This document shows positions 5,193 through 64,000 of a stretch of DNA of 64,000 nt, one piece after another. The stretch covers positions 68,519 to 132,518 of IMG/VR virus record IMGVR_UViG_3300045988_117466, one strand, 5' to 3'. Numbering within the stretch: the first letter of the stretch is position 1; each line of letters starts with the position of its first letter. Below the pieces are notes generated by a model, which worked only from the letters and a program-made list of their open reading frames with translations, was not told the DNA's origin and ran no database searches. The translations under genes and the position numbers were made by a program. The DNA is from a virus.

Positions 5193-5206
5193 AATTTCCT
5201 CCAATT

Positions 5207-5237: not shown

Positions 5238-5241
5238 TACA

Positions 5242-15026: not shown

Positions 15027-15383
15027 CAAGGGCAGGGAAATACCCTATTTTCACACTGGTAAAATATGTATTTGACAATCACTAATGCAATATTCTATAC
15101 TAATTATGTAACAAGAAATATGTATCATATCTCAAAGTAATAACACACATGGGGCTCACAATTCAGTGAGCCTTTTGTGTATCTGAAATTAAAGGAGAAG
15201 AGAGGTTCATAAAGATACCTCTTTTTCGCAATTAACCTTGCAATATTTGGAAACATAAGTTATAATTAGAAACATCATGGAATAATTAGTTCCCCAATTA
15301 ATTATTTTCATACTAAAGGCATTCCTAGGAGGTAGGGATGCCTTTTCTCCATTTATGGGGTAACGATTCGTTCACCCATCAAA

Positions 15384-16190: not shown

Positions 16191-16275
16191 AATTCAATTT
16201 CTCCTTTTAATATAAACTTAATTTCAAAAGGGGTCGCATTTCACGACCCCCTATCAACAACAATCTCACCAAACT

Positions 16276-17082
16276 TTAATCTTCAAGATCCCCAACAACT
16301 CTGTAAACAAGTTTCTGACCTTTACCAGTTACATAAGTCTGTGGAACAATCACATTGCAAATCACATGTTCACCAACTTCAAAACATCCGTTCTCAACGT
16401 ATCTCTGATATGGCATGTTGTCCCGCATCAGGATTCCATTACTTCTCAGAATCTCAAAAAGACGATTCCTTCCAATGTCATATCCATCATTCTGCAACAA
16501 TTTGGCCATTGTGTTCATGTCGATCGTATCAGAAGAAGCAGTAACACATCTTGCAAAATCTACATCTTCTTTGGAAGCTTCAAGTTCTCCACGAAGCTCT
16601 GCGATTGTAGCTTGCTGAATTTCTAATGCTTTGAGTACAAACTCAGCTTCAGACAGATTTTTATATGGAATGTATCCACCTGTACGTCTGATCTGTGGAA
16701 GAACTTCAGATGTTACCCATCTTTTGAAACGATGTAATTTTTCAATTCTCTCTTCAATAAGGGGGTCATTTTGTGACACCCCCTTTGCTTTAGCAGGTTG
16801 CATTAAGAATAATAATGAATATAGTCCTGATTCATTAAGAACTGTGATGTTTTGCATTCCTCCAGCGGTTTGAATTTTTGCCATTGTTTTGTCAGCTTTG
16901 TCAATTCTACGCAAGCTACGCTTGTGATTTGTATCTCCAAAAGCTATGCATACATCTTTTCCAACAAACCAAGGTTCATTGTCAATCTCAACGCATCTGA
17001 TTGATCCAAATTCGTCATTTACGAAGTTCATGATCTGATTGTTATTTCCTACTTCATTTTCTGCTTTTGTTAAATTTGCCAT
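16276..17082 (-). CDS. Bro-N / KilAC (Ant-like antirepressor) protein, intron cargo
   Basis: Bro-N pattern (IRCVEIDNEPWFVGKDVCIAFGD...ESGLYSLLF...FKRWVTSEVLPQIRRTGGY). KilAC-like C-terminus (MAKLLQNDGYDIGRNRLFEILRSNGIL). SD AAAGGAGA. Confidence 0.8.
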   Translation of the reverse strand: MANLTKAENEVGNNNQIMNFVNDEFGSIRCVEIDNEPWFVGKDVCIAFGDTNHKRSLRRIDKADKTMAKIQTAGGMQNITVLNESGLYSLLFLMQPAKAKGVSQNDPLIEERIEKLHRFKRWVTSEVLPQIRRTGGYIPYKNLSEAEFVLKALEIQQATIAELRGELEASKEDVDFARCVTASSDTIDMNTMAKLLQNDGYDIGRNRLFEILRSNGILMRDNMPYQRYVENGCFEVGEHVICNVIVPQTYVTGKGQKLVYRVVGDLED

Positions 17083-17162
17083 ATTAAATTCTCCTTTTCT
17101 TCAGAAAGGTGCACCAAATGGCATAGAACAGATGGTGCTGATGATTTGCTTATCCTTCTATG

Positions 17163-17245
17163 CATATATGGCTAATTTACTACCCCTTTAAAACACCAGG
17201 CTCTACCTAATGTTTTAAGACTCAATTAATGTGGTAAGTCTGCTA
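17163..17245 (-). promoter_or_regulatory. conserved ~80-nt structured element, copy 1 (upstream of the Bro-N ORF, inside intron 1)
   Basis: Minus strand: UUACCAC-AUUAAUUGA-[long stem]-AGGU-AGA-GCCU-[long stem]-GUAGUAA-...AUAUAUG. Homologous to 43548-43630 and 43733-43815, with compensatory changes in the stems. Confidence 0.6.
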
Positions 17246-17698
17246 GAGCAGTATAAAAAGAGTATTAAATTATGTTAATGAGTATTTATAATATATCATA
17301 TAAAATTCATTTCCCTATGTGCAAGCATGTTTCCATGCTGATAATTTTCTAGCGGCACATTCGCATACAGTTCTGATCATCCCTTTCTGATGTCACTCGT
17401 AAGGTGAGTTAACCAGATTCCCATTATGATCGATGGACGTTCCTCTAATATAGAGGCTTCGCTGCGGATTCTGTATAAATATTGATCTTATTACTATATC
17501 TTAGGAATTACCCCTTGCCCTTAATACATCACTGTACTAAGTTAGTAATCAATATCGTTTAACAGTTCCCGTACATAAATTATCAAAAAGTATTTCAGTT
17601 TCGGTTGTTTTCTAAGCAATCTCTTATTTGTATCACCATTTCGATACAAACTCGTTCTGTGTTACCACTAGATTGCTCTGGGCATTGTACATGAGGAC

Positions 17699-41174: not shown

Positions 41175-41184
41175 TTGGACATAG

Positions 41185-41257
<73 letters not shown>

Positions 41258-41258
41258 A

Positions 41259-41294
41259 CAAAAAGAGTACATTGTAACTACCAACAATGTACTC
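41259..41294 (-). terminator. hairpin plus U-run immediately 5' of tRNA-Thr
   Basis: 10-bp stem GAGUACAUUG/CAAUGUACUC followed by UUUUU on the minus strand. Could be a terminator or an RNA-processing hairpin. Confidence 0.45.
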
Positions 41295-41441
41295 AAATTT
41301 AGAAAAGAGGTATAAATTATGATTCCTACAAGAAATCTTAATAGCTTTGTAAATCTTTCTGAGGTATGAAACAACAATAGAAAAGCGCAATAATCAAAAC
41401 TTCACAAGAAAGGAGATAATATGATTCCTCAGAAAGATTAA

Positions 41442-41513
41442 CAGGGATAACTGGATTTGAACCAGTGAATACAGCAGTCAAAGTGCTGTGCCTTACCGCT
41501 TGGCGATATCCCT
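41442..41513 (-). tRNA. tRNA-Gln: tRNA-Gln (anticodon UUG)
   Basis: Acceptor AGGGAUA/UAUCCCU, anticodon stem CAGCA/UGCUG with loop CUUUGAC, T-arm ACUGG-UUCAAAU-CCAGU; 72 nt. Confidence 0.85.
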
Positions 41514-42126
41514 ATATGTATTTTAATTTTAAAGCAGGTCTTCACCTTACAGTCATTTGTGGAATAGTTTGTTCTGCAACATAGTAGATAAGTCTGAGCT
41601 TTGAGGAGCGACCTCTAACTTCTTACCTAAGTCTAAAAGACCAGTTCTATGACATGATCAATACATGCAATGTCAACCCGCCATTCAGAATTAAGTTTTA
41701 TTGTTATATACTCTATTAGCATATATATTCATTTTGAATTTGAACTTACCCTTAACTGACTTGAGCGACATACCAGCGACTTTTCTTATACACTGTCTTT
41801 TGAACAGCTTCACATCAAACTACATTATTTGGCTTTTCCACCTTTTACGTACCTGCCAGAGTACGCATTGAAGTGGATTATTCTCCACAGGAGCGTCTAT
41901 TGTTGTAGCGAAAAGTTCTGTGCGTTAACCAGACCAAAATGCTGCACAATATCCATTTGCTTGAGAGTTTCTCTCTTGTCCATATCAAATCACTCCGACA
42001 TAAAAAGAGACACAAAGAACGTATCCGTACAATGTATCTCTCCAATTCGACATATGTGCCTAGAATATTTCTCGGACTCATGGCATTGAGTTTTATAACC
42101 GAGTTGCTTATGTTTTAAAATACAAA

Positions 42127-42198
42127 CACCCTAAGCTGGATTTGAACCAGCACGAACGGTTTTGGAGACCGTCATTCTACCAACTAAATTATTAGGGC
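42127..42198 (-). tRNA. tRNA-Trp: tRNA-Trp (anticodon CCA)
   Basis: Acceptor GCCCUAA/UUAGGGU, anticodon stem ACGGU/ACCGU with loop CUCCAAA, T-arm GCUGG-UUCAAAU-CCAGC. Confidence 0.85.
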
Positions 42199-42205
42199 GA
42201 TATTA

Positions 42206-42279
42206 CTGACATGACAGGACTCGAACCTGCAACACCAACGTCCGTAGCGTTGTGCTCTGTCCAGTTGAGCTACATGTCA
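42206..42279 (-). tRNA. tRNA-Arg: tRNA-Arg (anticodon ACG)
   Basis: Acceptor UGACAUG/CAUGUCA, D-arm GCUC-AACUGGACA-GAGC, anticodon loop CUACGGA, T-loop UUCGAGU. Confidence 0.85.
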
Positions 42280-42322
42280 TTAAAATTCGACCTCAATCCA
42301 CATAGGATTTTGAGGTACTTTC

Positions 42323-42408
42323 GTCCCTGTTGAGGGAATCGAACCCACTCGTGACCGAAGCCATCTGATTTACAGTCAGATCCGCCTCCTTAGCGGGATA
42401 AACAGGGA
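42323..42408 (-). tRNA. tRNA-Tyr: tRNA-Tyr (anticodon GUA), class II
   Basis: Acceptor UCCCUGU/ACAGGGA, anticodon loop CUGUAAA, long variable arm, T-loop UUCGAUU; 86 nt. Confidence 0.8.
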
Positions 42409-42450
42409 TATAAGCCCGTGAGCTCGAAAGACATCACAGGACAACCTAAA

Positions 42451-42536
42451 CGCTGCGACAAGGATTCGAACCTTGAGGTCACTAGGACACAATAGTTTTC
42501 AAGACTACGCCGTTATAACCATTTCGGTACCGCAGC
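42451..42536 (-). tRNA. tRNA-Ser: tRNA-Ser (anticodon UGA), class II
   Basis: Acceptor GCUGCGG/UCGCAGC, anticodon loop CUUGAAA, long variable arm, T-loop UUCGAAU; 86 nt. Confidence 0.8.
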
Positions 42537-42541
42537 AAAAG

Positions 42542-42633
42542 CGTACAGAGTGGGCTACGACCCCACGTTACATGTATTCGCATGTAAACCCAATTAGCAG
42601 TCGGGCGCCTTAAACCAACTCAGCCATCTGTAC
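42542..42633 (-). tRNA. tRNA-Ser: tRNA-Ser (anticodon GCU), class II
   Basis: Acceptor GUACAGA/UCUGUAC, anticodon stem CCCGA/UUGGG with loop CUGCUAA, long variable arm, atypical T-loop GUCGUAG; 92 nt. Confidence 0.7.
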
Positions 42634-47936: not shown

Positions 47937-49067
47937 TTAAGAACCTATTCGAGGTTTACAGCCGGCCATCATTGTCCAATGATTTTGGCCCCCTTTGTAA
48001 AGAAAATCGACAACCTTTCGAACATCCGTTCCATACCTTGAAAATTTCTTTTTCCAGTAATCTATGGTAGATAAAGTATATACATGAACTAATTCTTCAT
48101 CGATTTCAAGTTCTGTTGACTGAGGAAGAAATTGATGAAATTTGAATTTCATTGACATATCGTTGATTAATTTATCCTTCCTGGACTGAGCAAGTTTGAG
48201 AACTTTTGGTTTCAAATTGTGCTGCAGTCTTTTTTGATACATATAAAAATCAAACTCTTTTAGGTATGAATGTTCATCTGGATAAAGATATTCTGGCTCG
48301 ATCACAAACCTATAATATAAACCTTGGAACTCAGGATAAGATGTAAGTATTTCCCGAAACTTTGGATATACTTCTGGATAAATCTTAGCCGTTTCGATCT
48401 CAATGGAGCGTGCCGTATTAAAGGTTTTTCGTAAAGCCTGTTCATACAAGTACCGTTCTCGTTTGGTAAATTCTCTTAGAGGTTCATCTATAGTTCTTCT
48501 ACACACAATACGTGTTCTTCTTTTAATGATTCCTCTTTTTTCCATATTTACCAAAGTGTCATGCAATCTTGTATGTGCGATTTGTTTCATACAGTCATAT
48601 GCCACCTCAAAATAAGATGGAGAATATTTAAATTCACTCAGATCATAATCTTTTCTGTTTGCCACCAAGAGACCAAGTACTTCACACCATTTGTTTTTAT
48701 CCCAGTTTTCATTGATGTGATTATCTAAGATATGAATGATCATCATTTCCAACATATATCCTGTACTCATAAATGGCTTCCTAAGTTCCCAAGAGAATGG
48801 GTTCTCAACCAACTCACCTTTGACCTTTGTGATTTTAATTTGTCCATCTTTTTGTTTCTGAGTGCATAAGAAGTAATCGAGCTTTTCTTTATAATACGCA
48901 TATTTGTTTTTCCTTGCTTCTTTACTAATGCCAGCCATTTGAAGAATTTCGCCGTAATTTTTGTACTTTGTACCCTTTTTAAATCCTGACATATCGAACA
49001 AGTGCTGTCTTTCTTGCTGGAACCATGATTGTTCTGTTAGATATTCGTTTCTTTCTTGTATCGTCAT
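47937..49067 (-). CDS. hypothetical protein, 376 aa (first gene of the minus-strand block)
   Basis: ATG at 49067 after AAGGAGGTCAA. No recognisable motif. Confidence 0.5.
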   Translation of the reverse strand: MTIQERNEYLTEQSWFQQERQHLFDMSGFKKGTKYKNYGEILQMAGISKEARKNKYAYYKEKLDYFLCTQKQKDGQIKITKVKGELVENPFSWELRKPFMSTGYMLEMMIIHILDNHINENWDKNKWCEVLGLLVANRKDYDLSEFKYSPSYFEVAYDCMKQIAHTRLHDTLVNMEKRGIIKRRTRIVCRRTIDEPLREFTKRERYLYEQALRKTFNTARSIEIETAKIYPEVYPKFREILTSYPEFQGLYYRFVIEPEYLYPDEHSYLKEFDFYMYQKRLQHNLKPKVLKLAQSRKDKLINDMSMKFKFHQFLPQSTELEIDEELVHVYTLSTIDYWKKKFSRYGTDVRKVVDFLYKGGQNHWTMMAGCKPRIGS

Positions 49068-49121
49068 TTTTTGACCTCCTTTGTGTTGTTTGCTTTTGTT
49101 AATTCAATGAAAAAGTGCATT

Positions 49122-49231
49122 TGTCTGAGCAATGACACTTTTCTTTCGATGAATTCACATTACCATAGATGTAGAGTAAAATCAATAGTTTTTTGAAGAA
49201 AAAATAAAATTGTGTGAGTAATGACACTTTT
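49122..49231 (+). repeat. direct repeat pair TGT(C/G)TGAG(C/T)AATGACACTTTT
   Basis: Copies at 49122-49142 and 49211-49231, 19/21 identical, in the non-coding switch region. Confidence 0.7.
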
Positions 49232-49279
49232 TATTTCATTTAAGTACGTTTAAGGAGGCTTAGACTAGGATTTTTGTGT

Positions 49280-49474
49280 CAAGTGTTTTTTGAAAATTTC
49301 TTAAAATAATGTTTTCTTTGGCTGTTTTACTGGGCTTGTTCTGGATTTTTCTTTAACTCATTGTACTTATATAGGTAGAAATATGGCTGTTTTATGCGAT
49401 TGTACAAAAATAAAATAAATTAATTTTTTATACGCTAAAGTATTGACTTTTGAAAAATCAAGTGTTTTTTGAAA
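49280..49474 (+). repeat. direct repeat pair CAAGTGTTTTTTGAAA
   Basis: Identical 16-mers at 49280-49295 and 49459-49474. Related TTTTTGAAAA strings lie at about 49545 and about 49925. Confidence 0.7.
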
Positions 49475-50428
49475 GAAATTTAAAAAAATTTTTACCGTGT
49501 GGATTTCTCAGAGAGGGTGTTTGCATTTATATAAGAAGAGCCTGGTTTTTGAAAAAATTTCAGAAAAGTGGGTTTAAAGCAGAACAGGTGTTCTATATTT
49601 TAGAGTGTGTTAAGAGGTGCGTTTCTGGGGAAAGTTTTTATGAGGGGGGAGGGGTGTATGTGTGGTGTTCGGAAAGAAATGTGGAGGATGTTTTTAGAGG
49701 GTTTTGAGGGGTTAAGTGGCGTAGATGTGGGGTGGAGAAACGTCTGGCTGAACTTGTGGTATAGAATTACCAGCTATACGAATATCAGCAAAACTGCGAT
49801 TTAAAAATAGTTTTAAGTAGCCCCCTAAACACTTTTAAAAGTCTGTAAATAACTATTTACTTGCGTTTTTGATCAGAAATAGATAGTCAAAAAAGCACGT
49901 ATTTATGCGGGTTTGAGACCGTTTGAAAAGATTTTTAAAAATATTTTTTTTAGGGTATTGCAAAATTTTGGTGGGCATGGTCTTATACAGTTGTTCCAAG
50001 GGACAAGGAACTAAAACAAAAGTTCAAAAATTTAAAAAGAAAGAAGATGATAAAAGCCCAGTGCGTGGGCAGAACGCACGAACAAACGAAAAATTGAAAA
50101 TCTTTCCTAAAGTAGGCGTTCCCTACCACTAAGAAAGTAGTCATAGGTACAGCGACTATAAACCAGTACCCGCACTTTGACAAAATAATACTCTTTTCAA
50201 GTCTTTGGCGGTTAGTCCGTCAATCACATGGTTAGTCCATGCCCCAAAAGACCTGAATCGTTAGGTATCGACATACGCAAAAACTCTACTTTGCTACAAG
50301 TGGACTTTGCCAAAAAATCGGTTTTGATTCTATATCGGGAAAATACAGTAGCAGGAAATTTGCCCTTTGACGTTGGAACGTATTACGTCCAACTCATAAA
50401 CAATTATTTTAGTTTGTTGAGTCTTGAA

Positions 50429-50516
50429 CTCAATTAGCCAACAGGTGGCAATCCTACGCAATAACTCTATCCTTTTTTAGAGTTTGGGTTAATCGGTTCG
50501 ACTCCGATAGTTGAGA
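50429..50516 (+). ncRNA. tRNA-like element (acceptor plus T-arm, non-canonical middle)
   Basis: CTCAATT...ATCGG-TTCGACT-CCGAT-AGTTGAG-A: a 7-bp acceptor-like stem, a perfect T-arm and a D-like hairpin GCC-AACAGGT-GGC. No canonical anticodon arm; instead a hairpin CTCTA-TCCTTTTT-TAGAG with an 8-nt loop. Confidence 0.4.
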
Positions 50517-55313: not shown

Positions 55314-55604
55314 ATGTGGAAAATTGGAGATAGAGTAATTGTTGTTGAGGCTCCAGAAGAAAAGAATATTTGGAGATTAAATATTTCAGCAGGCGACAAG
55401 GGAACCATTATAGCCAAAAGAGATGGTCAGTATTTAATCCAATTTGATAAGGATATTGGTGGGCATGATGGAGCTTTTGAAAAACCACTAGGTAAAGATG
55501 GTCATTGTTGGTGGTTGTATGAAGAACATTCTTACCTTGTAAGTTGTGCCTTAGAGCTTAAGTGTAAGTGGATTCCAAAGAAAAGAAACAACAACTTCTA
55601 CTAA
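55314..55604 (+). CDS. KNNYY-tail family, class a (MWKIGDRV...GHCWW), ends KKRNNNFY
   Basis: ATG at 55314 after AGGAAGTG. C-terminal tail motif directly before the stop. Confidence 0.6.
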   Translation: MWKIGDRVIVVEAPEEKNIWRLNISAGDKGTIIAKRDGQYLIQFDKDIGGHDGAFEKPLGKDGHCWWLYEEHSYLVSCALELKCKWIPKKRNNNFY

Positions 55605-55622
55605 AAGAAAGGCAAGGTAAAC

Positions 55623-55922
55623 ATGAGAGAACTTAAACTTGAAGATTGTAAGGTTGGGATGACTCTTAAGCTAAAGGAAGATTGTCCTTTTAGAGAGTAT
55701 TGGGAAATAGATCCTAAGGAACCGGTAAAGTGCATTGTCCTAGAGGTGATCGGGAGTCAAATAGATAGCATTTTTGTAGATATCTACTATAAAAATGGGC
55801 GAAAATGTGTCCCGAGGAATTGGTATTTCTATACAGAAGATTCAATAATAGAGGCTAACGGTTATGAACTAATCTCAAAGAACTTAGAGTATCCGAACAA
55901 GCGAAAGAACAATTACTATTGA
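55623..55922 (+). CDS. KNNYY-tail family, class b (EDCKVG...DCPF), ends KRKNNYY
   Basis: ORF with SD. The tail and stop are fused to the next SD (TGAGAGGTG). Confidence 0.6.
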   Translation: MRELKLEDCKVGMTLKLKEDCPFREYWEIDPKEPVKCIVLEVIGSQIDSIFVDIYYKNGRKCVPRNWYFYTEDSIIEANGYELISKNLEYPNKRKNNYY

Positions 55923-55933
55923 GAGGTGCAAAT

Positions 55934-56239
55934 ATGCAAAAAGAAAAGGGAATTCGATTCGAAGATTGCCATGTTGGAGATGTATTTAGGTTAAAAACAA
56001 GGTGTCCTTTTGTGTACTATTACCTTATATCTGAGGGGATTGCTGTAGCAATAGAAGATAAAGTTACTGCAAGAGTAGTTCATAAAGAAAGAGATACTCT
56101 TGATGTAATGGTATATGTAAATGGGAAAAGATGTGCAACAGATTGGGATTGTTGGCTTGCAAGCAGTTCGATCTATCGTGAACATAGTTTTTACCTTAAT
56201 GTCGATTCAAAGATTAATCGAAAGAACAACTATTATTAG
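55934..56239 (+). CDS. KNNYY-tail family, class b, ends NRKNNYY
   Basis: ATG at 55934 after GAGAGGTG. FEDCHVGDVFRLKTRCPF. Confidence 0.6.
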   Translation: MQKEKGIRFEDCHVGDVFRLKTRCPFVYYYLISEGIAVAIEDKVTARVVHKERDTLDVMVYVNGKRCATDWDCWLASSSIYREHSFYLNVDSKINRKNNYY

Positions 56240-56264
56240 ATATAAGAGAAAGGAAAATAAGGCT

Positions 56265-56780
56265 ATGGGATATTTTAAAGTAGGAGATAGAGTAGAAGTA
56301 ATAGGCATCTATGGGCAACTTCCTGCCTATTATGAAGAACAAATAGAGATAGGTTCAAAGGGAACTATAATTACTGTAGATTGGTATGGTATTGACGTAA
56401 TATTTGACGATCTTAAACCTTATAAAGAGCCATCAAAGAACTCTTTGAATTTTGCTCCAATGTGGGATGATGATAAGGATAGTGAAGAATTTATTGATTC
56501 TGATATCCAAGGGACTGTTATTTTGGGCAAGGAAAACGCACCAAAAGCAGAGGTTCAAGTGAAATCTATTAAAATCAAAGATCGGACTGTTATAAGAGAC
56601 AATAACGGAGACCGCTTAGATGTAGAAATTATTACAGATCAGGGAAAGATTTTGGGAAGCACTTGTAGATGCTACAAAGGTTGCCACAATACTTGGGACA
56701 TAACCAATTTAATAGGCAGAAAATTTCAAGGTATGAATGGTTTACTTCGTTATTTAATTGTGGAACAGAAAGGAAAATAA
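56265..56780 (+). CDS. class a-like paralogue without the tail, 171 aa
   Basis: ATG at 56265 after AGAAAGGAAAATAAGGCT. MGYFKVGDRVEVIG...GSKGTIITVD..GIDVIFDD. Ends ...LIVEQKGK. Confidence 0.55.
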   Translation: MGYFKVGDRVEVIGIYGQLPAYYEEQIEIGSKGTIITVDWYGIDVIFDDLKPYKEPSKNSLNFAPMWDDDKDSEEFIDSDIQGTVILGKENAPKAEVQVKSIKIKDRTVIRDNNGDRLDVEIITDQGKILGSTCRCYKGCHNTWDITNLIGRKFQGMNGLLRYLIVEQKGK

Positions 56781-56782
56781 AA

Positions 56783-57082
56783 GTGAAAGATAGAGAAATT
56801 CGGACAGGAGATAGAGTAGAAGTTATTAAAAGTCATAACGAGGATTCATGTATTGATCACTATGCTCCTGTAGGGCTTAAAGGAACTGTAGTTTATGCAG
56901 AACCGAGACATTTGACAAAGCAAATAGCTGTTGAGTTTGATAAGTCTTTTAAAGAAGGACACGGTTGTAGTGGAAAAGTAAGAGGTAAGCGAGGGCAGTG
57001 GTATGAATATGATCCACATTCCAATATATATTGGAAAAATTGCTTAAAAATCTTATCCAAAAAGAAAAACAACTATTACTAA
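56783..57082 (+). CDS. KNNYY-tail family, class a, ends KKKNNYY
   Basis: GTG at 56783 after GAAAGGAAAATAAAA. TGDRVEVIK...GLKGTVVY...VEFD...GHGC. Confidence 0.55.
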   Translation: MKDREIRTGDRVEVIKSHNEDSCIDHYAPVGLKGTVVYAEPRHLTKQIAVEFDKSFKEGHGCSGKVRGKRGQWYEYDPHSNIYWKNCLKILSKKKNNYY

Positions 57083-57129
57083 AGGTATTTCAAAATCAGT
57101 GGAGTGATTTTTGTTAATACATGAAGAAA

Positions 57130-57156
57130 GGCGGGATTTATTCCCGTCTTTTTTTA
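57130..57156 (+). terminator. intrinsic terminator
   Basis: GGCGGGA-TTTA-TTCCCGTC followed by TTTTTTT. Confidence 0.65.
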
Positions 57157-57175
57157 AAACAGAAAGGAAATTAAG

Positions 57176-57556
57176 ATGAGTAAATTTAGATATTTAAATG
57201 AAGAAGAAACAAAAGTGTTATTACAGGTAACAGAATGGTTAGATAATCATTTCTTTAATCCAGAAAATAAATTCGATGAAGAATATTTTGAGAAATACAT
57301 GAGAGCAATCATTGACAACACAAGGGAAATGTACGAAGCGGTATACATCTGTGTGAACACAAAACCTGTAACTGTAATGATTTATGACTATGTACTTGAC
57401 ATTATTATTACCGATGCACGAGTTGACAAAGAAGCTAGAGAGATTGTAGAGATTGCTTTTACAACTTGGTTAATAAACATGACAGATAAACCATTTGAAA
57501 AGATTTTTGAATGGATGATTAGGCTCGCAATCCAATCACGTAAAGCTGATGAGTAA
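57176..57556 (+). CDS. hypothetical protein, 126 aa
   Basis: SD GAAAGGAAATTAAG-ATG. Confidence 0.5.
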   Translation: MSKFRYLNEEETKVLLQVTEWLDNHFFNPENKFDEEYFEKYMRAIIDNTREMYEAVYICVNTKPVTVMIYDYVLDIIITDARVDKEAREIVEIAFTTWLINMTDKPFEKIFEWMIRLAIQSRKADE

Positions 57557-57606
57557 AGAGTCATACAAAACAGAGAATATACAAATAAAAGTGAGGCGAT
57601 AAATAA

Positions 57607-58716
57607 ATGTTAAAAGCCTATAAATATAGATTATATCCAAACAGACAACAAATAAAACAAATTCAAAAAACTTTTGGGTGTTGTAGATTTGTATATAATC
57701 AAACTCTCGCATATAGGAAAGCAATGTATGAAACGAAAAAAGAATCTATGAATAAAACTTCTTGTAACAACTATGTTAATCAAGTTCTAAAAAAAAAATA
57801 CGAATGGTTAAAGGAAGTGGATAAATTTGCTCTTACGAATGCAATTTATGATATGGATTTCGCATATCAGAAATTTTTCAAAGAGCATACAGGTTTTCCA
57901 AAGTTCAAATCTAAACGAGATAATAAAAAGTCATATTCTACTAATTTTACAAACAACAATATCGGAGTATCGTTTGAGAATAATAGGATTAAACTTCCGA
58001 AACTTAAATGGATTAAAGCAAAGATTCATAGAGAATTTATAGGGAAGATAAAATCCGCAACAATTTCACAAGTACCGTCTGGCAAATATTTTGTATCAAT
58101 TCTTGTAGAAACAGAGCATATTCCAATGGAGTCTACCGGTTGTATGATTGGTATTGACTTAGGTGTTAAAGATTTACTTATCACTTCCGATGGAGCAAAA
58201 TTTGATAATATTCGCACCACTAAAAAATATGAAGATAAACTAGCAAAAGAACAAAGAAAATTGTCTCATAAAGTAAAAGGTAGTATGAATTGGAATAAAC
58301 AGAGAATAAAAGTAGCAAGAATACATGAAAAGATTCACAATACCAGAATTGATAACTTACATAAAATTTCTCATAAACTTGTCAGCGAAAACCAAGTGAT
58401 AGTTTCTGAGGACTTATCTGTAAGTAATATGGTGAAGAATCGTAATCTTGCGAAGGCGATTTTAGATTGTGGATGGTATGAATTAACAAGACAGATAAGT
58501 TATAAGTCTGATTGGAATAATCGTCAGTATATCAAGATTGGAAGATTTACAAAATCAAGCCAACCTTGTAATATATGTGGTTACATTAATAAAAACACAA
58601 AAGATTTATCTGTTAGAGAATGGATATGTCCTCAATGTGGAACTATCCATGATAGAGATATCAATGCTGCAATTAATATTCTTAATGAAGGATTGAGATT
58701 ATTAGATGTAGTATAA
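57607..58716 (+). CDS. tnpB: TnpB (IS200/IS605-family OrfB, RuvC-type RNA-guided nuclease)
   Basis: N-terminal YKYRLYPN..Q...I...FG.CRFVYN. RuvC residues intact (IGIDLG, VSEDL, DRDINAAINI). Zinc finger CNICG...CPQCG. No tnpA anywhere in the window. Confidence 0.9.
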   Translation: MLKAYKYRLYPNRQQIKQIQKTFGCCRFVYNQTLAYRKAMYETKKESMNKTSCNNYVNQVLKKKYEWLKEVDKFALTNAIYDMDFAYQKFFKEHTGFPKFKSKRDNKKSYSTNFTNNNIGVSFENNRIKLPKLKWIKAKIHREFIGKIKSATISQVPSGKYFVSILVETEHIPMESTGCMIGIDLGVKDLLITSDGAKFDNIRTTKKYEDKLAKEQRKLSHKVKGSMNWNKQRIKVARIHEKIHNTRIDNLHKISHKLVSENQVIVSEDLSVSNMVKNRNLAKAILDCGWYELTRQISYKSDWNNRQYIKIGRFTKSSQPCNICGYINKNTKDLSVREWICPQCGTIHDRDINAAINILNEGLRLLDVV

Positions 58717-58830
58717 ATAATACTTAGTACGACAGGGACTGTCGGAATTTACGCTTGTGGAGTTAGTAGGTTACGAGGACGATGAAACAAGAAGCCCAAC
58801 GAGCTTTAGCTCGTGGGTAGTTCAAGAAAG
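58717..58830 (+). ncRNA. putative TnpB guide-RNA (omega/reRNA) scaffold and element right end
   Basis: Directly 3' of tnpB. Hairpins CGACAG-GGA-CTGTCG (58730-58744) and CCCAACGAGC-TTTA-GCTCGTGGG (58795-58817). Extent is not determinable by eye. Confidence 0.45.
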
Positions 58831-58865
58831 TTACAGGATAAGACAAAGAAGAGAGGATGAAGACG

Positions 58866-59009
58866 ATGAATAGATTTGAAACAGTAATGAAGTTAATTTG
58901 TTGGATTGCAGCAGTGACATTGGCATGGATGCACGTTTCAATTGTTGCAGTGATTGCACTTGCATTGGTTGGAACTTTTGGAAGTGAGGTTGATTTGGGT
59001 GCAAAGTAG
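58866..59009 (+). CDS. small membrane protein, 47 aa (below the ORF-track cutoff)
   Basis: ATG at 58866 after AGAGAGGATGAAG. MNRFETVMKLICWIAAVTLAWMHVSIVAVIALALVGTFGSEVDLGAK, with two hydrophobic segments. Confidence 0.4.
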   Translation: MNRFETVMKLICWIAAVTLAWMHVSIVAVIALALVGTFGSEVDLGAK

Positions 59010-59349
59010 ACAATTAGGAAGGCAAGTATGTTTTAAAGATTGTCATGTTGGAGATGTTTTTGGAATAGATAAAGACAGTCCTTATATGCGTAGAAGTAGA
59101 AGCAGATTGGTTGTAGATAATTTATACGATCTTGAACCATCAGACATATTAAAAGCAAAAGTTATATCTGTAGAGGAAGAAGATTCTACCATTTGCATAG
59201 ATGTTTATGTAAATAATGAAGAGTATCCAAGGGTTTCAGGCTGGCTTTACTCCTGGATATACAATTCAGAAACACCACTGCATGGTTCAGATTTGTGGAT
59301 TGAGAATAATCTCAGATTCTTGTCAAAGAGAAAGAATAACTACTGGTAA
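58999..59349 (+). CDS. KNNYY-tail family, class b, ends KRKNNYW
   Basis: Probable GTG at 58999 after GAAGTGAGG. CFKDCHVGDVFGIDKDSPY. Confidence 0.5.
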   Translation: MQSRQLGRQVCFKDCHVGDVFGIDKDSPYMRRSRSRLVVDNLYDLEPSDILKAKVISVEEEDSTICIDVYVNNEEYPRVSGWLYSWIYNSETPLHGSDLWIENNLRFLSKRKNNYW

Positions 59350-59363
59350 AGAGAGGTGTGAGA

Positions 59364-59570
59364 ATGGAGTTAAAAGTTGGGATGAAACTCTACGACAAAA
59401 AACACAATATTGTATTAGTAATTGTGGATTTAGACATAGACAAAATATGTGTTTATAGTAAATCTTTTACCGGCAATAGAAAGTTATCTTTAAGTGTGAA
59501 TTTTATACAACATAGTTTAAAAGATGGACGGTTCCGTATTATAAGAAACAGGAAAAATAATTTTTGGTAA
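59364..59570 (+). CDS. KNNYY-tail family, class c, ends NRKNNFW
   Basis: ATG at 59364 after AGAGAGGTGTG. MELKVGMKLYD... Confidence 0.55.
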   Translation: MELKVGMKLYDKKHNIVLVIVDLDIDKICVYSKSFTGNRKLSLSVNFIQHSLKDGRFRIIRNRKNNFW

Positions 59571-59586
59571 GGGAAGGGGTAAGTAA

Positions 59587-60174
59587 ATGTTAATAATTCC
59601 TAAAGTAGGGCAAAGGTTTGTTCATGGTTTTAAGGCCTACCTCGTTACAGAAGTTAGGTTAGTAAAAAGAACAAGTCCGTTTAAAGAAAATTCGTTTGAA
59701 ATAGCTAACAAATATAATGAATTTAGATCAAGAGTCTATTGCATGGACAAGCAAACCAAACAAATTACATGTATTACATTACATGGATATTCAAGTTTGG
59801 TACAAAATGGATATATTGTATTAACCAAAAGTAGACAAGAAGATGAGCAAATGTTAATAGAAGCAGGTGTAGATATGAAAAGAAAAGTATATTTCAAAGA
59901 CTGTCATGTAAACGATGTTTTTAGGATGGATGTAAATTGTCCATGGATATCTGAAATTCATGAATCTTATATAGTAGATAGCTTAAATCCCTTGGATAGA
60001 CTAAGAGCGAAAGTTGTGTATATAGATGAAAACGATCATAGCATTCTTATACAAATTTACATAAACGAAGAGAAGAGTTCTAGTATTAGTGGTTGGGTTT
60101 ATGAAGAACTTGGTGATTTATCTATTGAAGATAATCTTGAATTCATACCTAAAAAGAAAAATAACTACTGGTAA
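59587..60174 (+). CDS. KNNYY-tail family, class c plus class b fusion, ends KKKNNYW
   Basis: The N-terminal half (IPKVGQRFVHG...) resembles class c. The second half begins MKRKVYFKDCHVNDVFRMDVNCPW, a full class b unit. Confidence 0.6.
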   Translation: MLIIPKVGQRFVHGFKAYLVTEVRLVKRTSPFKENSFEIANKYNEFRSRVYCMDKQTKQITCITLHGYSSLVQNGYIVLTKSRQEDEQMLIEAGVDMKRKVYFKDCHVNDVFRMDVNCPWISEIHESYIVDSLNPLDRLRAKVVYIDENDHSILIQIYINEEKSSSISGWVYEELGDLSIEDNLEFIPKKKNNYW

Positions 60175-60188
60175 AGAGAGGCAAGCAA

Positions 60189-60506
60189 ATGGAAGAGAAA
60201 AGAGAAGTATGCTTCGATGATTGCGAAGTTGGCATGTTTTTTAGGATTGATAAAGACTGTTCATGGATGTGTTGCAATGAGTGGATGGATGGTTTTGATA
60301 CATTGAGAAATGCAGATGAGTTAAAAGTTAAAATTATTGATAAAGACGCTGATGATACCAGTGTTAGGATAGAATTTTGGGCAGATGGTCAAAAGACAGA
60401 TATAACAGATTGGCTCTATCAATATGAATGTGAAGACGATCCAGAAGACAGAATTGGAAATAACCTTGAGTTCCTACGAAAAAGGAAAAATAACTACTAT
60501 TGGTGA
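60189..60506 (+). CDS. KNNYY-tail family, class b, ends KRKNNYYW
   Basis: CFDDCEVGMFFRIDKDCSW. SD AGAGAGGCAAGC. Confidence 0.6.
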   Translation: MEEKREVCFDDCEVGMFFRIDKDCSWMCCNEWMDGFDTLRNADELKVKIIDKDADDTSVRIEFWADGQKTDITDWLYQYECEDDPEDRIGNNLEFLRKRKNNYYW

Positions 60507-60515
60507 GGTAAGCAA

Positions 60516-60776
60516 ATGGAAAATGAATTAAGAATTGGAATGCAGTTCTTAGAATTAAAAACGGGAACTGTCTGGAAGCTTGTAGATATGAAATTTATAC
60601 AAGAAGGGTTTTATATAACAGACATATCATTGTGGTTTCAAGCTGTACATGTAAATACAGACGAGGACAATGTATGGAAAAGTACATCGTCAATGATGCC
60701 TAAGGCGATGCTCGAAAGAAGATTGAAAAAAGGCGTATGGAAACAAATAAACAATAGAAAAAACAATTACTATTGA
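60516..60776 (+). CDS. KNNYY-tail family, class c, ends NRKNNYY
   Basis: MENELRIGMQFLELKTG... Confidence 0.6.
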   Translation: MENELRIGMQFLELKTGTVWKLVDMKFIQEGFYITDISLWFQAVHVNTDEDNVWKSTSSMMPKAMLERRLKKGVWKQINNRKNNYY

Positions 60777-60798
60777 TTAATAGTAGAAAGGACATATT

Positions 60799-61932
60799 AT
60801 GGAGGATTTAAGATTAGTAACAACAGAAGAATTTAATGGAGTTGATTGCAACTTTTACAAGGCAGATAGTAACATGTGGATGACTAGAGGACAGATCGGT
60901 AAAGCTTTAGGGTATCACAACCCAAGGATTGCAATCGGGAAAATACATACTGTACATAGAGATAGACTTGATCCACTTTCAGTTGATACCAATTTAGTGT
61001 CTACTGATGGAAAAGAATATTCTACCTATATATATAATGAAAGAGGCATCTTTGAAATCTGTAGATGGTCGAGACAGCCAAAAGCAAATGAATTTATGGA
61101 TTGGGTATGGGACATTATAGAAGCTTACAGACATGGAGAATTCCAGAGAAAGCCTAGGGAAACAGCCATTACACCTGTTGAAAAATTCTTAGATGGAATG
61201 CAGAATATGTTCTTAGAAATGAGAGAAGAGAACAGAGTATTCAAAGATACTGTGTTGCAAATTTTAGAATCTCAGCAAGGACAGGTAGTACAAAAACCTG
61301 TTGAAAAAGTTGAAGTTCAAGAGAAAACTGTTAATCAATTAAAATCAAAACCAGTTGTTAAGCCAGTTGTTAAGATTGAAAATCCTAGATTAGATACTTG
61401 GAAGTTCGAAATTAATACTAAAGCAGCCTATATTGTTTTTAATGGAAATGAATATAAAACAAAAGGGAAAGTATTCTCAGCATGTTATTCAAAGATGAAG
61501 AACGTGTATGGAGTTTGTTGGCCACAGGAAAATAAAGAATACAGAAGAGCTTTTGGATTAGAATCTCAGAGAGGCAGACTAAGCACTTTAGATGTTGTAT
61601 TCAATGACGAAAACTTGAAAGACCTGTTTGACAGTATTCTTGATGGAATATATGAAAACACAAAAAGAAAAGTTATAAAGAAAAATACAGAAATCAATCC
61701 AGAAAAAGATTGGCAGTATTATAAAGAAAAGATTCAAAAACTTTGTGAGCAGACAGGCAACAAAAGTGTAGGCGGAAGCTCTATTTACTCAGGAATCATT
61801 AGAATGATGAATGTAGACTGGAGCAAGTATGAAACAAACAAAAAGAAAACTGAATTAGTTAGAAAGTATCCAGAGTTATTTGTAGAGTTCTCTAAGACAG
61901 CGGATAAATATTTAGAGGAGAAGTTAAAATGA
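60799..61932 (+). CDS. Bro-N domain protein, 377 aa
   Basis: N-terminal ...FNGVDCNFYK...MWMTRGQIGKALGY...ERGIFEICRWSRQPKANEFMDWVWDIIEAYRHGE fits the Bro-N pattern. C-terminal half unknown. Confidence 0.65.
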   Translation: MEDLRLVTTEEFNGVDCNFYKADSNMWMTRGQIGKALGYHNPRIAIGKIHTVHRDRLDPLSVDTNLVSTDGKEYSTYIYNERGIFEICRWSRQPKANEFMDWVWDIIEAYRHGEFQRKPRETAITPVEKFLDGMQNMFLEMREENRVFKDTVLQILESQQGQVVQKPVEKVEVQEKTVNQLKSKPVVKPVVKIENPRLDTWKFEINTKAAYIVFNGNEYKTKGKVFSACYSKMKNVYGVCWPQENKEYRRAFGLESQRGRLSTLDVVFNDENLKDLFDSILDGIYENTKRKVIKKNTEINPEKDWQYYKEKIQKLCEQTGNKSVGGSSIYSGIIRMMNVDWSKYETNKKKTELVRKYPELFVEFSKTADKYLEEKLK

Positions 61933-62048
61933 GTATTAAAATTTTAGGGCTTCGTCAAGATTGCTACAAAGTAATCATTGATGGAGTCCTTTTTAAATTC
62001 CCAACAGAACAAGAGTTTTTGGAATTCCTAGAGGAGATTGAGATATGA
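61929..62048 (+). CDS. mini-ORF, 39 aa
   Basis: ATGA overlaps at both ends (61929 and 62045), indicating translational coupling. MSIKILGLRQDCYKVIIDGVLFKFPTEQEFLEFLEEIEI. Confidence 0.4.
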   Translation: MSIKILGLRQDCYKVIIDGVLFKFPTEQEFLEFLEEIEI

Positions 62049-62323
62049 GTTTTAGATTTGAAGTAGGTCAAGAGTTGGAATTACACAATAACTTGACGGA
62101 TATGAAAGTTTACATGAGATCGGGAACGGTTGTTCGTATCTTAAGTAGAAAAACAAGAATGGATCATACACAAGAGGTTGAGAGAAATCGTTACAAGATT
62201 GCATATGAATTTCATACAAACTTTTTGAAAATTGGAGATGGTTGTTGCCACTCTGGAAAAGACTTTGTCTGGGAAGAAGATTTAATTAGAGCTGTCGGTC
62301 AACGGAAAAATAATTATTATTGA
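62045..62323 (+). CDS. KNNYY-tail family, class c-like, ends QRKNNYY
   Basis: MSFRFEVGQELELHN... Confidence 0.55.
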   Translation: MSFRFEVGQELELHNNLTDMKVYMRSGTVVRILSRKTRMDHTQEVERNRYKIAYEFHTNFLKIGDGCCHSGKDFVWEEDLIRAVGQRKNNYY

Positions 62324-62335
62324 GAGGTGATTAAA

Positions 62336-62605
62336 ATGTGGAAAGTTGGAGATAGAGTCGTAATTATTCAAGATACTAGGAGACCTTTAAAATCCTTTGT
62401 AGGCTTTAAAGGAACTGTTAACTTTGTAGATGGAGATGACATAAATGTTGTTTTTGACAAATATGTAAACGGTCATGAGTTAGGAGGGAGTTGCCAAGAC
62501 GGTCATGGATGGTATTTGTCCACAAGGGGAGAGAACGAAAACGAAGCCGAATCAAATGGAATGAGAGTCAAGAAAATTAGCAATAGAAAAAATAATTATT
62601 GGTAG
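62336..62605 (+). CDS. KNNYY-tail family, class a, ends NRKNNYW
   Basis: ATG at 62336 after TGAGAGGTGATTAAA. MWKVGDRVVII...GFKGTV...VVFD...GHGWY. Confidence 0.6.
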   Translation: MWKVGDRVVIIQDTRRPLKSFVGFKGTVNFVDGDDINVVFDKYVNGHELGGSCQDGHGWYLSTRGENENEAESNGMRVKKISNRKNNYW

Positions 62606-62614
62606 GTGATTAAA

Positions 62615-62887
62615 ATGTGGAAGATTGGAACTAGAGTTAGGATTATAAAATCAAATAGATCTACAACACCAGTTGGCATTACGGGTACTGTGGTTTACAT
62701 TCGTAAGGATAAAAACGATCGTTTTATAGTAGAGTTTGACGAACCTATGGATGGGAATATTATGACTACTCTTTATGATTGCAAACCGAACTGTTGGTGG
62801 TGGTTTGATAATGTTCCAGGGAGAATTGTTAAAACAGATGGTATAACGATTGAAAAAATAGGGAAAAGAAAAAACAATTATTACTAA
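62615..62887 (+). CDS. KNNYY-tail family, class a, ends KRKNNYY
   Basis: ATG at 62615 after TAGGTGATTAAA. MWKIGTRVRII...GITGTVVY...VEFDEPMDG...NCWWW. Confidence 0.6.
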   Translation: MWKIGTRVRIIKSNRSTTPVGITGTVVYIRKDKNDRFIVEFDEPMDGNIMTTLYDCKPNCWWWFDNVPGRIVKTDGITIEKIGKRKNNYY

Positions 62888-62899
62888 GGTGGTGAGAAC

Positions 62900-63247
62900 A
62901 TGTGGAAGATTGGAGATAGAGTTGTAGTTACAGACTTGGGTAAAGCTTCACAAGATGATTTTGGGGTTGAAATAAAGATTGGATACAAGGGAACTATTAT
63001 CAACTTTTTAAAGGTTGATGTTCCATGGAATCCTGATGAGATAATTAAATTCTTAGTAGAGTTTGACGAACCCATGGATGGACATGATGGAAATGATTTC
63101 GGTAAAATAAGTGGGAAACCGGGACACTGTTGGTGGATGCGTGGAAACCAAGATAGTAATTTAATCAAATGGCGAGATAACCGGGATTGTGAAGCACCAT
63201 TAATATGTAAGAAAATTATGAAGAAAAGGAAAAACAATTTTTACTAA
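62900..63247 (+). CDS. KNNYY-tail family, class a, ends KRKNNFY
   Basis: MWKIGDRVVV...GYKGTII...VEFDEPMDGHDG...GHCWW. Confidence 0.6.
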   Translation: MWKIGDRVVVTDLGKASQDDFGVEIKIGYKGTIINFLKVDVPWNPDEIIKFLVEFDEPMDGHDGNDFGKISGKPGHCWWMRGNQDSNLIKWRDNRDCEAPLICKKIMKKRKNNFY

Positions 63248-63434: not shown

Positions 63435-63800
63435 ATGAAAGTAGTAATCGCAGAAAACAGATTAGAGGTAGTAACAGGAATCAAAAAGGCAGACTTCGAC
63501 AAACAGGTAACAGACATGACTGTTAGAGACGACAAAGGAAATGTGACATTCAAGTTAAAAGTTGGAGAACAGCCTAACATTTCAGTACTAGGATTAACTT
63601 GCAACACAACTGTTGACAAAGAGTTAGCGGTAACAATGATTCTTCCAATGGAAACAGATGTTGAAGAAATCAAAATCAAGTATGGTAAGGCTTTAGTAGC
63701 AGCTGAAAAGAATCTGAAAGTAATTGCCGACAGAATTGTAGCAGATACAGAAGCAATTGATGGAATCTTTGCAGACACAGAAGAAGCAACAGAAGCCTAG
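63435..63800 (+). CDS. hypothetical acidic protein, 121 aa
   Basis: ATG after AAAAGGAGAAAC. Followed by the terminator at 63857-63884. Confidence 0.55.
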   Translation: MKVVIAENRLEVVTGIKKADFDKQVTDMTVRDDKGNVTFKLKVGEQPNISVLGLTCNTTVDKELAVTMILPMETDVEEIKIKYGKALVAAEKNLKVIADRIVADTEAIDGIFADTEEATEA

Positions 63801-63928: not shown

Positions 63929-64000
63929 ATGATGATCAATGTAACATTAGCAACAACAGCAGGTAAAAGTTATGTAACAGCAGAAGGAAATCAGACTCCA
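63929..64000 (+). CDS. hypothetical protein, 5' fragment (runs off the window)
   Basis: ATG at 63929 after AAAAGGAGAAC. MMINVTLATTAGKSYVTAEGNQT... Confidence 0.4.
   Translation, partial: MMINVTLATTAGKSYVTAEGNQTP

Follow-up and report, generated by a model that had tools for sequence, protein, structure and literature searches.

Why should a bacteriophage encode, one after another, more than a dozen small proteins of several different kinds that all finish in the same few residues? The question is raised by a 64,000-nucleotide stretch of IMG/VR virus record IMGVR_UViG_3300045988_117466 (positions 68,519 to 132,518 of that record; the whole stretch is called the window here), in which 13 genes on the + strand, between positions 55314 and 63247, end in [RK][KN]NN[YF][YW](W)-stop. 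A first-pass annotation of the window had listed these open reading frames (ORFs), and their coordinates, strand and C-termini were confirmed in all 13 cases. It had also proposed that the common C-terminal tail is a docking, targeting or degradation peptide carried by diverse proteins, and, as an idea compatible with this, that the conserved gene ends assist the shuffling of gene cassettes. We find that the tail is under strong purifying selection as a peptide, and that it is most likely a common address tag.

The array has the marks of genuine genes, and its tail is not a product of chance. All 13 tail genes possess a genuine start codon (ATG in 11, GTG in 2) with a purine-rich Shine-Dalgarno sequence (SD) 6-10 nt 5' of it, and the fusion of stop codons to the SD of the next gene, described from the first reading of the locus, is seen in 7 of the 13. 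When the 64 kb are translated in six frames, [RK]NN[YFW][YFW](W)-stop is matched 12 times and every match is the end of an array ORF, the thirteenth tail gene (55314) having the variant ending RNNNFY; the same pentapeptide has zero internal occurrences in that translation, so that the tail does stand immediately before the stop throughout, as had been claimed. In shuffled sequence there are 0.02 tail-motif ends in 64 kb and 0.003 in a region of 8.4 kb, and the composition of the tail proteins predicts 1.7e-6 motif matches per C-terminus. The 12-13 copies observed, against 0.02 expected, far exceed chance, and the enrichment at C-termini on which the first-pass annotation had made its reading depend is thus present. 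Alignments leave Asn-Asn as the sole invariant part of the tail.

Selection acts on this peptide rather than on the nucleotides that encode it. Among the tail codons of the 13 genes, pairwise identity is 0.88 at positions 1 and 2 and 0.42 at position 3: the two asparagines are encoded by AAC and AAT in ratios of 7:6 and 6:7, tyrosine by TAC and TAT at about 1:1, and arginine by AGA, CGA, AGG or CGG. Between orthologues of related phages, the last seven codons show a proportion of nonsynonymous differences (pN) of 0-0.06 and a proportion of synonymous differences (pS) of up to 0.31. A tail pN of about zero alongside such a pS, together with the pattern over codon positions, places selection at the level of the peptide, and bears out what had been argued earlier from synonymous variation alone. 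A DNA element as the cause of tail conservation is excluded by the codon pattern and by pN and pS in orthologues, and a signal at the RNA level or in translational coupling is ruled out by the freedom of third codon positions. The bodies of the tail genes evolve quickly, with ratios of nonsynonymous to synonymous substitution rates (dN/dS) of 0.22-1.63 and a median of about 0.56. The comparison genes give 0.07 and 0.15 (g54605 and g53625, upstream of the array), 0.13 (a Bro-N gene within the array) and 0.05, 0.16 and 0.20 (the E1, JAMM and p580 genes of a neighbouring cluster considered below). The tail is frozen while the bodies diversify, as in arms-race genes.

How different the bodies are depends on the level at which they are compared. 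In BLASTP comparisons without tails, the genes starting at 55314, 56783, 62336, 62615 and 62900 form one group (class a), and those at 55623, 55934, 58999 and 60189, with the C-terminal half of 59587, form another (class b), while 59364, 60516 and 62045 are mutually unrelated singletons; the earlier claim of at least three classes without mutual similarity is upheld at this level. A larger set of 200 unique tail proteins, taken from the window and from loci L001-L054, the first 54 to be fetched, and stripped of their tails, falls into ten BLAST clusters. In tail-less profile-profile comparison, families 5 and 6 are linked (88%), families 0 and 7 and families 4 and 9 weakly so, and all pairs among classes a, b, c and d stay at or below 30%. 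Classes a and b do match with 95% probability when tails are included, and the match is carried by the tail, since it is gone once tails are removed. By these sequence comparisons, the bodies would represent 7-10 families with no mutual similarity detectable without the tail.

Class a, the most numerous family, is also the best characterised. Tail gene g56783 matches Pfam SH3_12 (PF18129, the Xrn1 SH3-like domain) with 28.9 bits (E 1.2e-6), above the gathering cut-off of 26.2, and the other four class a members of the window score about 14 bits, below it; SH3_12 is matched by 71 of 99 class a homologues (E<=1), at best with 5.1e-8, and a relative with tandem repeats (P0251) reaches 64 bits. 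The AlphaFold2 model of class a, made from g62900, is a beta barrel with a predicted local distance difference test score (pLDDT) of 81, and its 23 best PDB matches in Foldseek are all CAP-Gly domains (probability 0.96-1.0, E 0.03-0.5, target-normalised template modelling score 0.28-0.68). When the class a profile is compared with PDB sequences, dynactin CAP-Gly domains are the seven best, aligned over the whole domain at E ~0.1 (HMMER), and the alignment pairs VEFDEp.DGHDG with VILDEAKGKNDG. Pfam CAP_GLY (PF01302) is matched by 7 of the 99 class a members (best E 1.4e-4) and by no class a member of the window at E<=0.1. The GKNDG signature, the loop with which CAP-Gly domains hold the C-terminal carboxylate, is not kept in class a, where (D/N)GHDG is aligned with it, Lys standing opposite Gly and Asn opposite His. 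A viral fold library searched with the class a model returned uncharacterised phage proteins only. Class a is accordingly described here as a predicted SH3_12/CAP-Gly-like barrel. A set of 1.84 billion representatives contains 1,960 relatives of the domain, many with 2-6 tandem repeats in proteins of 300-970 residues on large phage-like contigs (up to 279 kb), without a tail and without an E1 gene nearby; the consensus of the tandem-repeat barrels is GDRV..G.xGTV..VEFDE.I.GH.G..GHGWW (P0216-P0351, for example P0216, P0222, P0228 and P0253; also L357 and L359). The barrel thus looks like an uncharacterised CAP-Gly/SH3_12 relative widespread in phages.

The class b model, made from g58999, is a small barrel with a helix (pLDDT 80), for which the fold search gave no clear match and weak ones to KOW, LSM and chromo barrels. 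The first-pass annotation's view that the tail is borne by different domains therefore stands for sequence and is weakened for fold, in that class a is SH3_12/CAP-Gly-like and the weak class b matches are small SH3-type barrels as well. In both models the last five residues have a pLDDT of about 47-53 and the strand before them is confident, which fits a flexible linear motif; in many families this hydrophobic strand, h-[RK]-h-h, lies directly before the tail. One tail protein, that of g59587, has two domains: a class b domain bearing the tail occupies residues 96-195, and the part before it (residues 1-95) is similar to families 5, 6 and c. A stand-alone version of its N-terminal domain exists as a protein of 97 residues (P0451). 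Searches against PHROGs gave best E-values of 0.003-0.08 for 10 of the 13 tail proteins, all to families of unknown function; Pfam gave weak SH3_12 matches only, and NCBIfam gave nothing for the three tail proteins searched. Literature searches for the tail peptide strings returned irrelevant matches only, and searches on phage E1, JAB and SH3-like domains or on CAP-Gly and phage returned nothing that describes a tail-array system. The earlier statement that the tail matches no described family agrees with these results in Pfam, PHROGs, NCBIfam and the literature found.

The tail is retained beyond the window. Among homologues found through their bodies, 289 of 313 keep it (98 of 113 in class a, 97 of 102 in class b and 94 of 98 in other families), those without it appear truncated or frameshifted, and more divergent class a representatives still terminate in KKNNYW, STKNNYW or similar; conservation in homologues of related phages, another point on which the first reading had rested, is therefore established. 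In relatives, the array that matches the window has 11-16 tail genes, and a second array (array 2) of eight tail genes lies about 5.5 kb downstream, past the end of the window, so that a genome has 15-24 tail genes in all (16+8 in UViG_3300045988_144639, for instance). The description of the locus as a single 13-gene array is therefore right as to its 13 tail genes and needs amending otherwise: the array is interrupted by tail-less genes, the gene at 59587 is a fusion, and the array is the first of two in relatives. Tail gene content differs even among near-identical phages, with chimeras and new members, and the copy number in close relatives ranges from 11 to 24.

Outside these phages, no real ORF with the tail was encountered among the matches covered. 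In IMG/VR, the exact DNA pattern for KRKNNYY-stop gives real ORFs in this clade only, the other matches being pseudo-ORFs of 7-24 residues. Among the matches listed, the same pattern found this clade only in metagenomes, and no convincing ORF among the first 120 from GTDB bacterial and archaeal genomes. A tail-centred profile search of 5.8 billion proteins returned body homologues and no new families, a result due to its E-value ceiling of 10. On this evidence (for GTDB and metagenomes, among the matches listed), the tail is restricted to one clade of gut siphoviruses. The window is contained in ENA scaffold OBRE15-1_SAMN03283283 scaffold_18 (133,420 bp), and its close relatives are human-gut assemblies and IMG/VR genomes of 70-134 kb. 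Nucleotide searches with the array and with a 20 kb structural region against 50,697 phage records gave nothing, or tRNA matches only, and the portal protein shares 26-30% identity with its counterparts in large Firmicute siphoviruses (Brevibacillus Sundance, Bacillus vB_BanS phages and Lactococcus phage PMBT69). Judged by these comparisons, the phage is without a close cultured relative, and its strong SDs and portal relatives suggest a Firmicute host.

Do the conserved gene ends serve as DNA recombination elements that shuffle cassettes, as the first-pass annotation had also suggested? Paralogues in the arrays do recombine. Four proteins (P0001-P0004) are 101-residue chimeras of the adjacent genes g62615 and g62900, and in L016 (IMGVR_UViG_3300029610_000357, ~12371-14485), as also in L068, array 1 runs straight into array 2, the 5.6 kb E1/JAMM cluster that separates them elsewhere having been deleted, apparently through recombination between class a paralogues. 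The gene ends, however, make poor substrates for such events: their third positions are randomised (0.42 identity), the longest exact run common to two gene ends has a median of 8 nt, and the single shared run of more than 15 nt (22 nt, at the ends of g58999 and g59587) joins two class b genes. The only mappable crossover, in P0002 (g62615 residues 1-46 followed by g62900 residues 60-115), falls in the body motif VEFDEPMDG, outside the tail. Microhomology at gene ends is thus contradicted as an explanation of the tail, and we give it almost no weight.

What part of the original proposal remains is that the tail is conserved, flexible by its pLDDT and attached to dissimilar bodies; which of docking, targeting and degradation it serves has to be weighed. 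That it docks to a partner seems to us slightly more probable than the opposite, and the fuller hypothesis, that it is a linear recognition motif by which many diversifying binders are addressed to one constant partner, has in our estimate about an even chance. Under this hypothesis, a hydrophobic last strand would be followed by [RK]-K-N-N-[YF]-[YW]-COOH, displayed on a flexible C-terminus, and small beta-rich binders of fast turnover, from 7-10 families, would be brought by the tail to that partner.

A candidate partner as good as a host hub is encoded between the arrays themselves. In relatives, a cluster runs in the order p121, a 79-aa protein, p114, a second 79-aa protein, p580, a 321-aa protein with a JAMM motif and a 227-aa ThiF/E1-like protein (12919-18073 in relative L009), after which the first gene of array 2 starts 4-12 nt past the E1 stop. 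The cluster is 96-100% conserved at the protein level, and 11 of the first 12 IMG/VR relatives to be fetched have it between their arrays; within it, p114 and the second 79-aa protein are paralogues of p121 and the first. The window reaches into its beginning, with p121 (63435-63800, + strand) as the last complete gene and the start of the first 79-aa gene (63929-64000, + strand) cut by the window end. The E1-like protein matches Pfam ThiF (PF00899) with 77.7 bits (cut-off 28.1) and contains the nucleotide-binding GxGxxG; PADLOC, applied to the seven proteins of the cluster, matches it to E1-E2 models at 6e-16, its NCBIfam matches are all below equivalog cut-offs, and its nearest solved relatives (UBA5, ThiF-type proteins, MccB and MoeB) are aligned over the nucleotide-binding part only. 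Support from library models is confined to this one protein of the cluster. The JAMM motif H-x-H-x7-S-x2-D was read by eye, as HSHVNMATSPSGVD, in the 321-aa protein, for which Pfam, PADLOC, NCBIfam and PDB sequence searches gave no match; p580 likewise had no match in a PDB sequence search, and the 79-aa protein had none to a family or in PDB. By inspection alone, the 79-aa proteins may be ubiquitin-like, and they end VVKADSAM or VVKADSAF, not in the Gly or Gly-Gly of a beta-grasp modifier. No E2 was recognised in the cluster.

The association of the cluster with array genes extends to more distant phages. On a divergent short contig, the E1 gene is followed directly by three different tail genes. 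Other gut phage contigs (L029-L054) have distant versions of the cluster (E1 40-47% identical), in which the small proteins end KADSAM/F or KADCA. In a second phage clade, whose E1 is 40% identical, the same cluster is flanked by class a-type genes at 21 of 25 loci; these genes match the tail-less class a profile at E 7e-11 to 4e-8, number one to four on both sides of the cluster (L030-L054; for example, 5070-5869 and 12751-13041 in L031), and have acidic-aromatic ends (DIWEYI(K), SIWNYI and ESDVW). No other tail families and no NN[YF][YW] tails were found in this second clade.

Because the co-operonic arrangement is conserved and class a genes again surround the cluster in the distant clade, the phage's own ThiF/E1-like and JAMM-motif cluster is the leading candidate for a single partner, even if still an unlikely one in absolute terms. 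The tail proteins would then be interchangeable substrate adaptors for the E1/JAMM machinery, or acceptors through the conserved Lys at -5, in a logic like that of F-box or SOCS-box families; fast-changing host targets, such as defence proteins, could be reached through the adaptors, and F-box-like logic would exist in a bacteriophage. In its most specific form, that of an adaptor or acceptor library plugged into E1/JAMM and directing ubiquitin-like modification, or its removal, to host targets (or, as a variant, with the class a barrels reading the tails), we consider this hypothesis quite unlikely. Several observations count against the cluster as partner. Phage L016 has no E1/JAMM cluster within 20 kb and is absent from the E1 scan, and its tails are intact; conversely, the phages with distant clusters are without the NN[YF][YW] tail, so the cluster does not need the tail, and it seems to have a small substrate protein of its own. 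To our knowledge, the C-terminal residues on which E1 enzymes characterised to date act are small, unlike Tyr and Trp. In large phages that have no E1 nearby the class a domain is common, and simple docking, to whichever partner, leaves the invariance of Asn-Asn unexplained.

Other explanations of the tail have to be set against address to a constant partner. It might be a degron or protease tag, recognised by ClpX or a similar AAA+ unfoldase of the host (or by another host hub), through which the proteins would be given a timed short life or the protease would be flooded or redirected. The C-terminal signal of the MuA type is RRKKAI, and the tail resembles ClpX C-motif 2 in composition, with basic and then hydrophobic or aromatic residues at the extreme C-terminus; the tail is flexible and identical on unrelated bodies, and the SD-rich genes and portal relatives indicate a Firmicute host. 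We nevertheless hold this explanation to be rather improbable, because it accounts neither for the invariant Asn-Asn nor for a last residue limited to Tyr or Trp, and because the first 120 bacterial and archaeal matches listed contain no real tail ORF and hence no evidence that a host signal is mimicked. The reader of the tail could also be the class a barrel itself. CAP-Gly domains bind C-terminal EEY/F-COOH tails, and by analogy an acidic groove in the class a barrel (VEFDEPMDGHDG) might bind KRKNN[YF][YW]-COOH, forming head-to-tail networks or autoinhibited states among 20-odd proteins. The exclusively CAP-Gly structural matches of the most numerous family, its dynactin-led sequence matches, the CAP_GLY hits in some of its members and the pairing of motifs (VEFDEP.DGHDG with VELDEP.GKNDG, and GHCWW/GHGWW with GHGIF) all point this way. 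The scores are weak, however (Foldseek E 0.03-0.5, HMMER E ~0.1), SH3_12 is the better Pfam assignment (71 of 99) and the GKNDG signature is lost, AlphaFold2 gives no confident docking of a protein's own tail, and no such tails lie close to the class a relatives elsewhere; the idea thus seems to us very doubtful.

The one invariant element, Asn-Asn, together with a ThiF/E1-like enzyme and a JAMM-motif peptidase encoded beside the arrays, would be accommodated by chemistry at these residues (cleavage, cyclisation or modification): either the two aromatic residues are removed and the C-terminal Asn so exposed is adenylated by an E1-type reaction, or a Lys-Asn isopeptide bond is made. MccB, which adenylates the C-terminal Asn of microcin C7, is among the solved relatives of the phage E1 (E 2e-7), though not the closest. 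That support is circumstantial, since the E1 is closest to UBA5 and ThiF and is aligned over its nucleotide-binding part only, L016 lacks the enzymes, and the strong conservation of the aromatic pair would be odd for residues that are discarded; we regard such chemistry as very improbable. Finally, the bodies might all belong to one very diverged family of SH3-like barrels, in which the tail and the preceding strand are an ancestral remnant whose basic-aromatic cluster would have a generic function, such as attachment to nucleic acid or to anionic membrane. In many families h-x-[VI]-G-x-x-h opens the sequence and G/E-x-h-[RK]-h-h closes it ahead of the tail, the SH3-like character of class a is matched by a weak resemblance of class b to KOW, LSM and chromo barrels, the bodies evolve fast enough to erase similarity, and the profiles of a and b match at 95% with tails. 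Little probability can be given to common descent of this kind, for the 95% match rests on the tail (pairs among a, b, c and d are at or below 30% without it), class d (YKAVPKNYKG...) does not have an SH3-like start, and generic electrostatics requires neither an invariant Asn-Asn nor exact placement at the C-terminus.

Tail arrays with E1/JAMM/ubiquitin-like clusters are undescribed so far. The same holds for the motif itself, for its distribution among 7-10 families arranged in tandem and for its occurrence on both sides of an E1/JAMM cluster; terminal address peptides and adaptor families with a constant motif are known in several forms. The CAP-Gly/EEY-F network of CLIP-170, p150Glued, EB1 and alpha-tubulin likewise combines a small SH3-type barrel that has a glycine-rich groove with different proteins that have a common C-terminal aromatic tail, some carrying both barrel and tail. 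In the phage, by contrast, the tail is basic-Asn-Asn-aromatic and not acidic, DGHDG takes the place of GKNDG, the scores are weak and Pfam favours SH3_12; moreover, the former is a eukaryotic microtubule plus-end network, and the tail array is a bacteriophage locus. ClpX degrons (SsrA LAA-type and MuA RRKKAI-type) are also short unstructured peptides at the extreme C-terminus of unrelated bodies, and in MuA basic residues are followed by hydrophobic ones, but the phage tail has a different and stricter sequence that includes Asn-Asn and occurs on about 20 paralogous genes instead of scattered substrates; the likeness is compositional. F-box, SOCS-box and BTB adaptors form large, fast-evolving tandem families in which one short element is frozen, as here beside a cluster with E1-like, JAMM and putatively ubiquitin-like proteins; the analogy is a functional one only, as the constant element in the phage is 6-7 C-terminal residues and not a folded domain, and no E2 or E3 was identified.

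The C-terminus of SSB (DDDIPF) and clamp-binding motifs (QLxLF) are similar in being linear, aromatic-ended C-terminal peptides that recruit proteins to a shared partner; they differ in that the tail is borne by a single hub, as with SSB, or that an acidic or Gln-Leu based motif is used, whereas in the phage many proteins bear a basic tail. Encapsulin C-terminal loading peptides and the T4 capsid targeting sequence are, like the tail, short terminal peptides common to unrelated cargo. Their sequences are unrelated to it, and the tail genes belong to a co-directional block whose orientation is opposite to that of the structural module, with no sign of late expression or packaging. As to gene organisation, the host-takeover module of SPO1, the hyperplastic regions of T4 and the pre-early genes of T5 resemble the arrays in their packed small genes, translational coupling, high turnover and unknown functions, and like them the tail arrays belong to a large phage, a Firmicute siphovirus, and adjoin its replication and early regions; we know of none among them with one invariant terminal peptide across unrelated families. 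The cluster has counterparts in prokaryotic E1-like/JAB/ubiquitin-like neighbourhoods (Iyer et al. 2006, PMC1779556; Cap2/Cap3 of the cyclic oligonucleotide-based antiphage signalling system, CBASS; Bil; and Bub, PMC11601596), in which a ThiF-family E1, a JAMM-motif protein and a small protein also occur together on a mobile element. Unlike these, the phage cluster has no recognised E2, its small protein ends KADSAM/F and not Gly-Gly, and ThiF is its sole library match.

Terminal address peptides (degrons, the peroxisomal targeting signal PTS1, SSB tails and cargo-loading peptides) are a powerful organising principle, and here up to 24 genes, several percent of the genome in one clade of uncultured gut phages, are constant only in a tail of 6-7 residues. 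The identity of the tail reader would at one stroke assign functions to an entire block of phage 'dark matter' and might provide a portable tag for Firmicute hosts. Should the reader be the E1/JAMM cluster or the CAP-Gly-like barrel, a new viral system of protein modification or protein networking with eukaryote-like logic would be at hand, and if the barrels read the tails, it would be the first prokaryotic or viral CAP-Gly/tail network. The tail motif is in any case a practical marker of the phage clade in gut metagenomes.

The genes of the array, all on the + strand where strand is given, are as follows in order of position. Tail gene 1 (55314-55604; class a, 96 aa, ending KKRNNNFY) precedes two class b genes, tail genes 2 (55623-55922; 99 aa, KRKNNYY) and 3 (55934-56239; 101 aa, NRKNNYY). 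Behind them stands a tail-less gene (56265-56780, equivalent to 3366-3881 of L001; 171 aa, ending QKGK), whose N-terminus, MGYFKVGDRVEV, is SH3-like by its look; it may be a family member that lost the tail or never acquired it. Tail gene 4 (56783-57082; class a, 99 aa, KKKNNYY) is the member that passes the SH3_12 cut-off. The array is then interrupted by another tail-less gene (57176-57556) and by an inserted TnpB/OrfB_IS605 gene (57607-58716; 369 aa), which is missing at the same position in relatives L002-L005, so that its insertion is recent. Beyond it lie tail gene 5 (58999-59349; class b, 116 aa, GTG start, KRKNNYW) and tail gene 6 (59364-59570; 68 aa, a singleton family, NRKNNFW). Just 3' of the TnpB insertion, the stored gene calls of scaffold L001 (6100-6670, corresponding to window positions 58999-59570) omit both of these genes; a protein of 116 aa that is 99% identical to that of g58999 was found in the protein collection (P0114).

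Tail gene 7 (59587-60174; 195 aa, KKKNNYW) is the fusion of a tail-less N-terminal domain to a class b domain, and is followed by tail gene 8 (60189-60506; class b, 105 aa, KRKNNYYW) and by tail gene 9 (60516-60776; 86 aa, NRKNNYY), which forms a family of its own (family 3). The Bro-N domain gene (60799-61932; 377 aa) has no tail; every relative has it midway along array 1, and its dN/dS indicates purifying selection, unlike its neighbours. Tail gene 10 (62045-62323; 92 aa, QRKNNYY) is again a family by itself (family 4), and three class a genes complete the array: tail gene 11 (62336-62605; 89 aa, NRKNNYW), tail gene 12 (62615-62887; 90 aa, KRKNNYY), whose N-terminal half is the one found in the chimeras, and tail gene 13 (62900-63247; 115 aa, KRKNNFY), after which come a hairpin and a run of T. 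These genes had been called early in the first-pass annotation; a scan for promoters and terminators stayed at chance level and speaks neither for nor against early expression.

The other half of the window, on the - strand, carries the terminase, portal, tape measure and tail proteins and seven tRNAs. The tRNAs (Thr, Gln, Trp, Arg, Tyr, Ser and Ser) are clustered at 41184-42633 on the - strand, between the packaging genes and the divergent region; they include tRNAs for Tyr and Trp, two of the residues of the tail, and none for Asn. At about 48000-50500 the coding strand switches, and GC and AT skew reverse, with the - strand structural genes to the left and the + strand block of the tail array to the right; a divergent promoter region, or else an origin, is the probable explanation.

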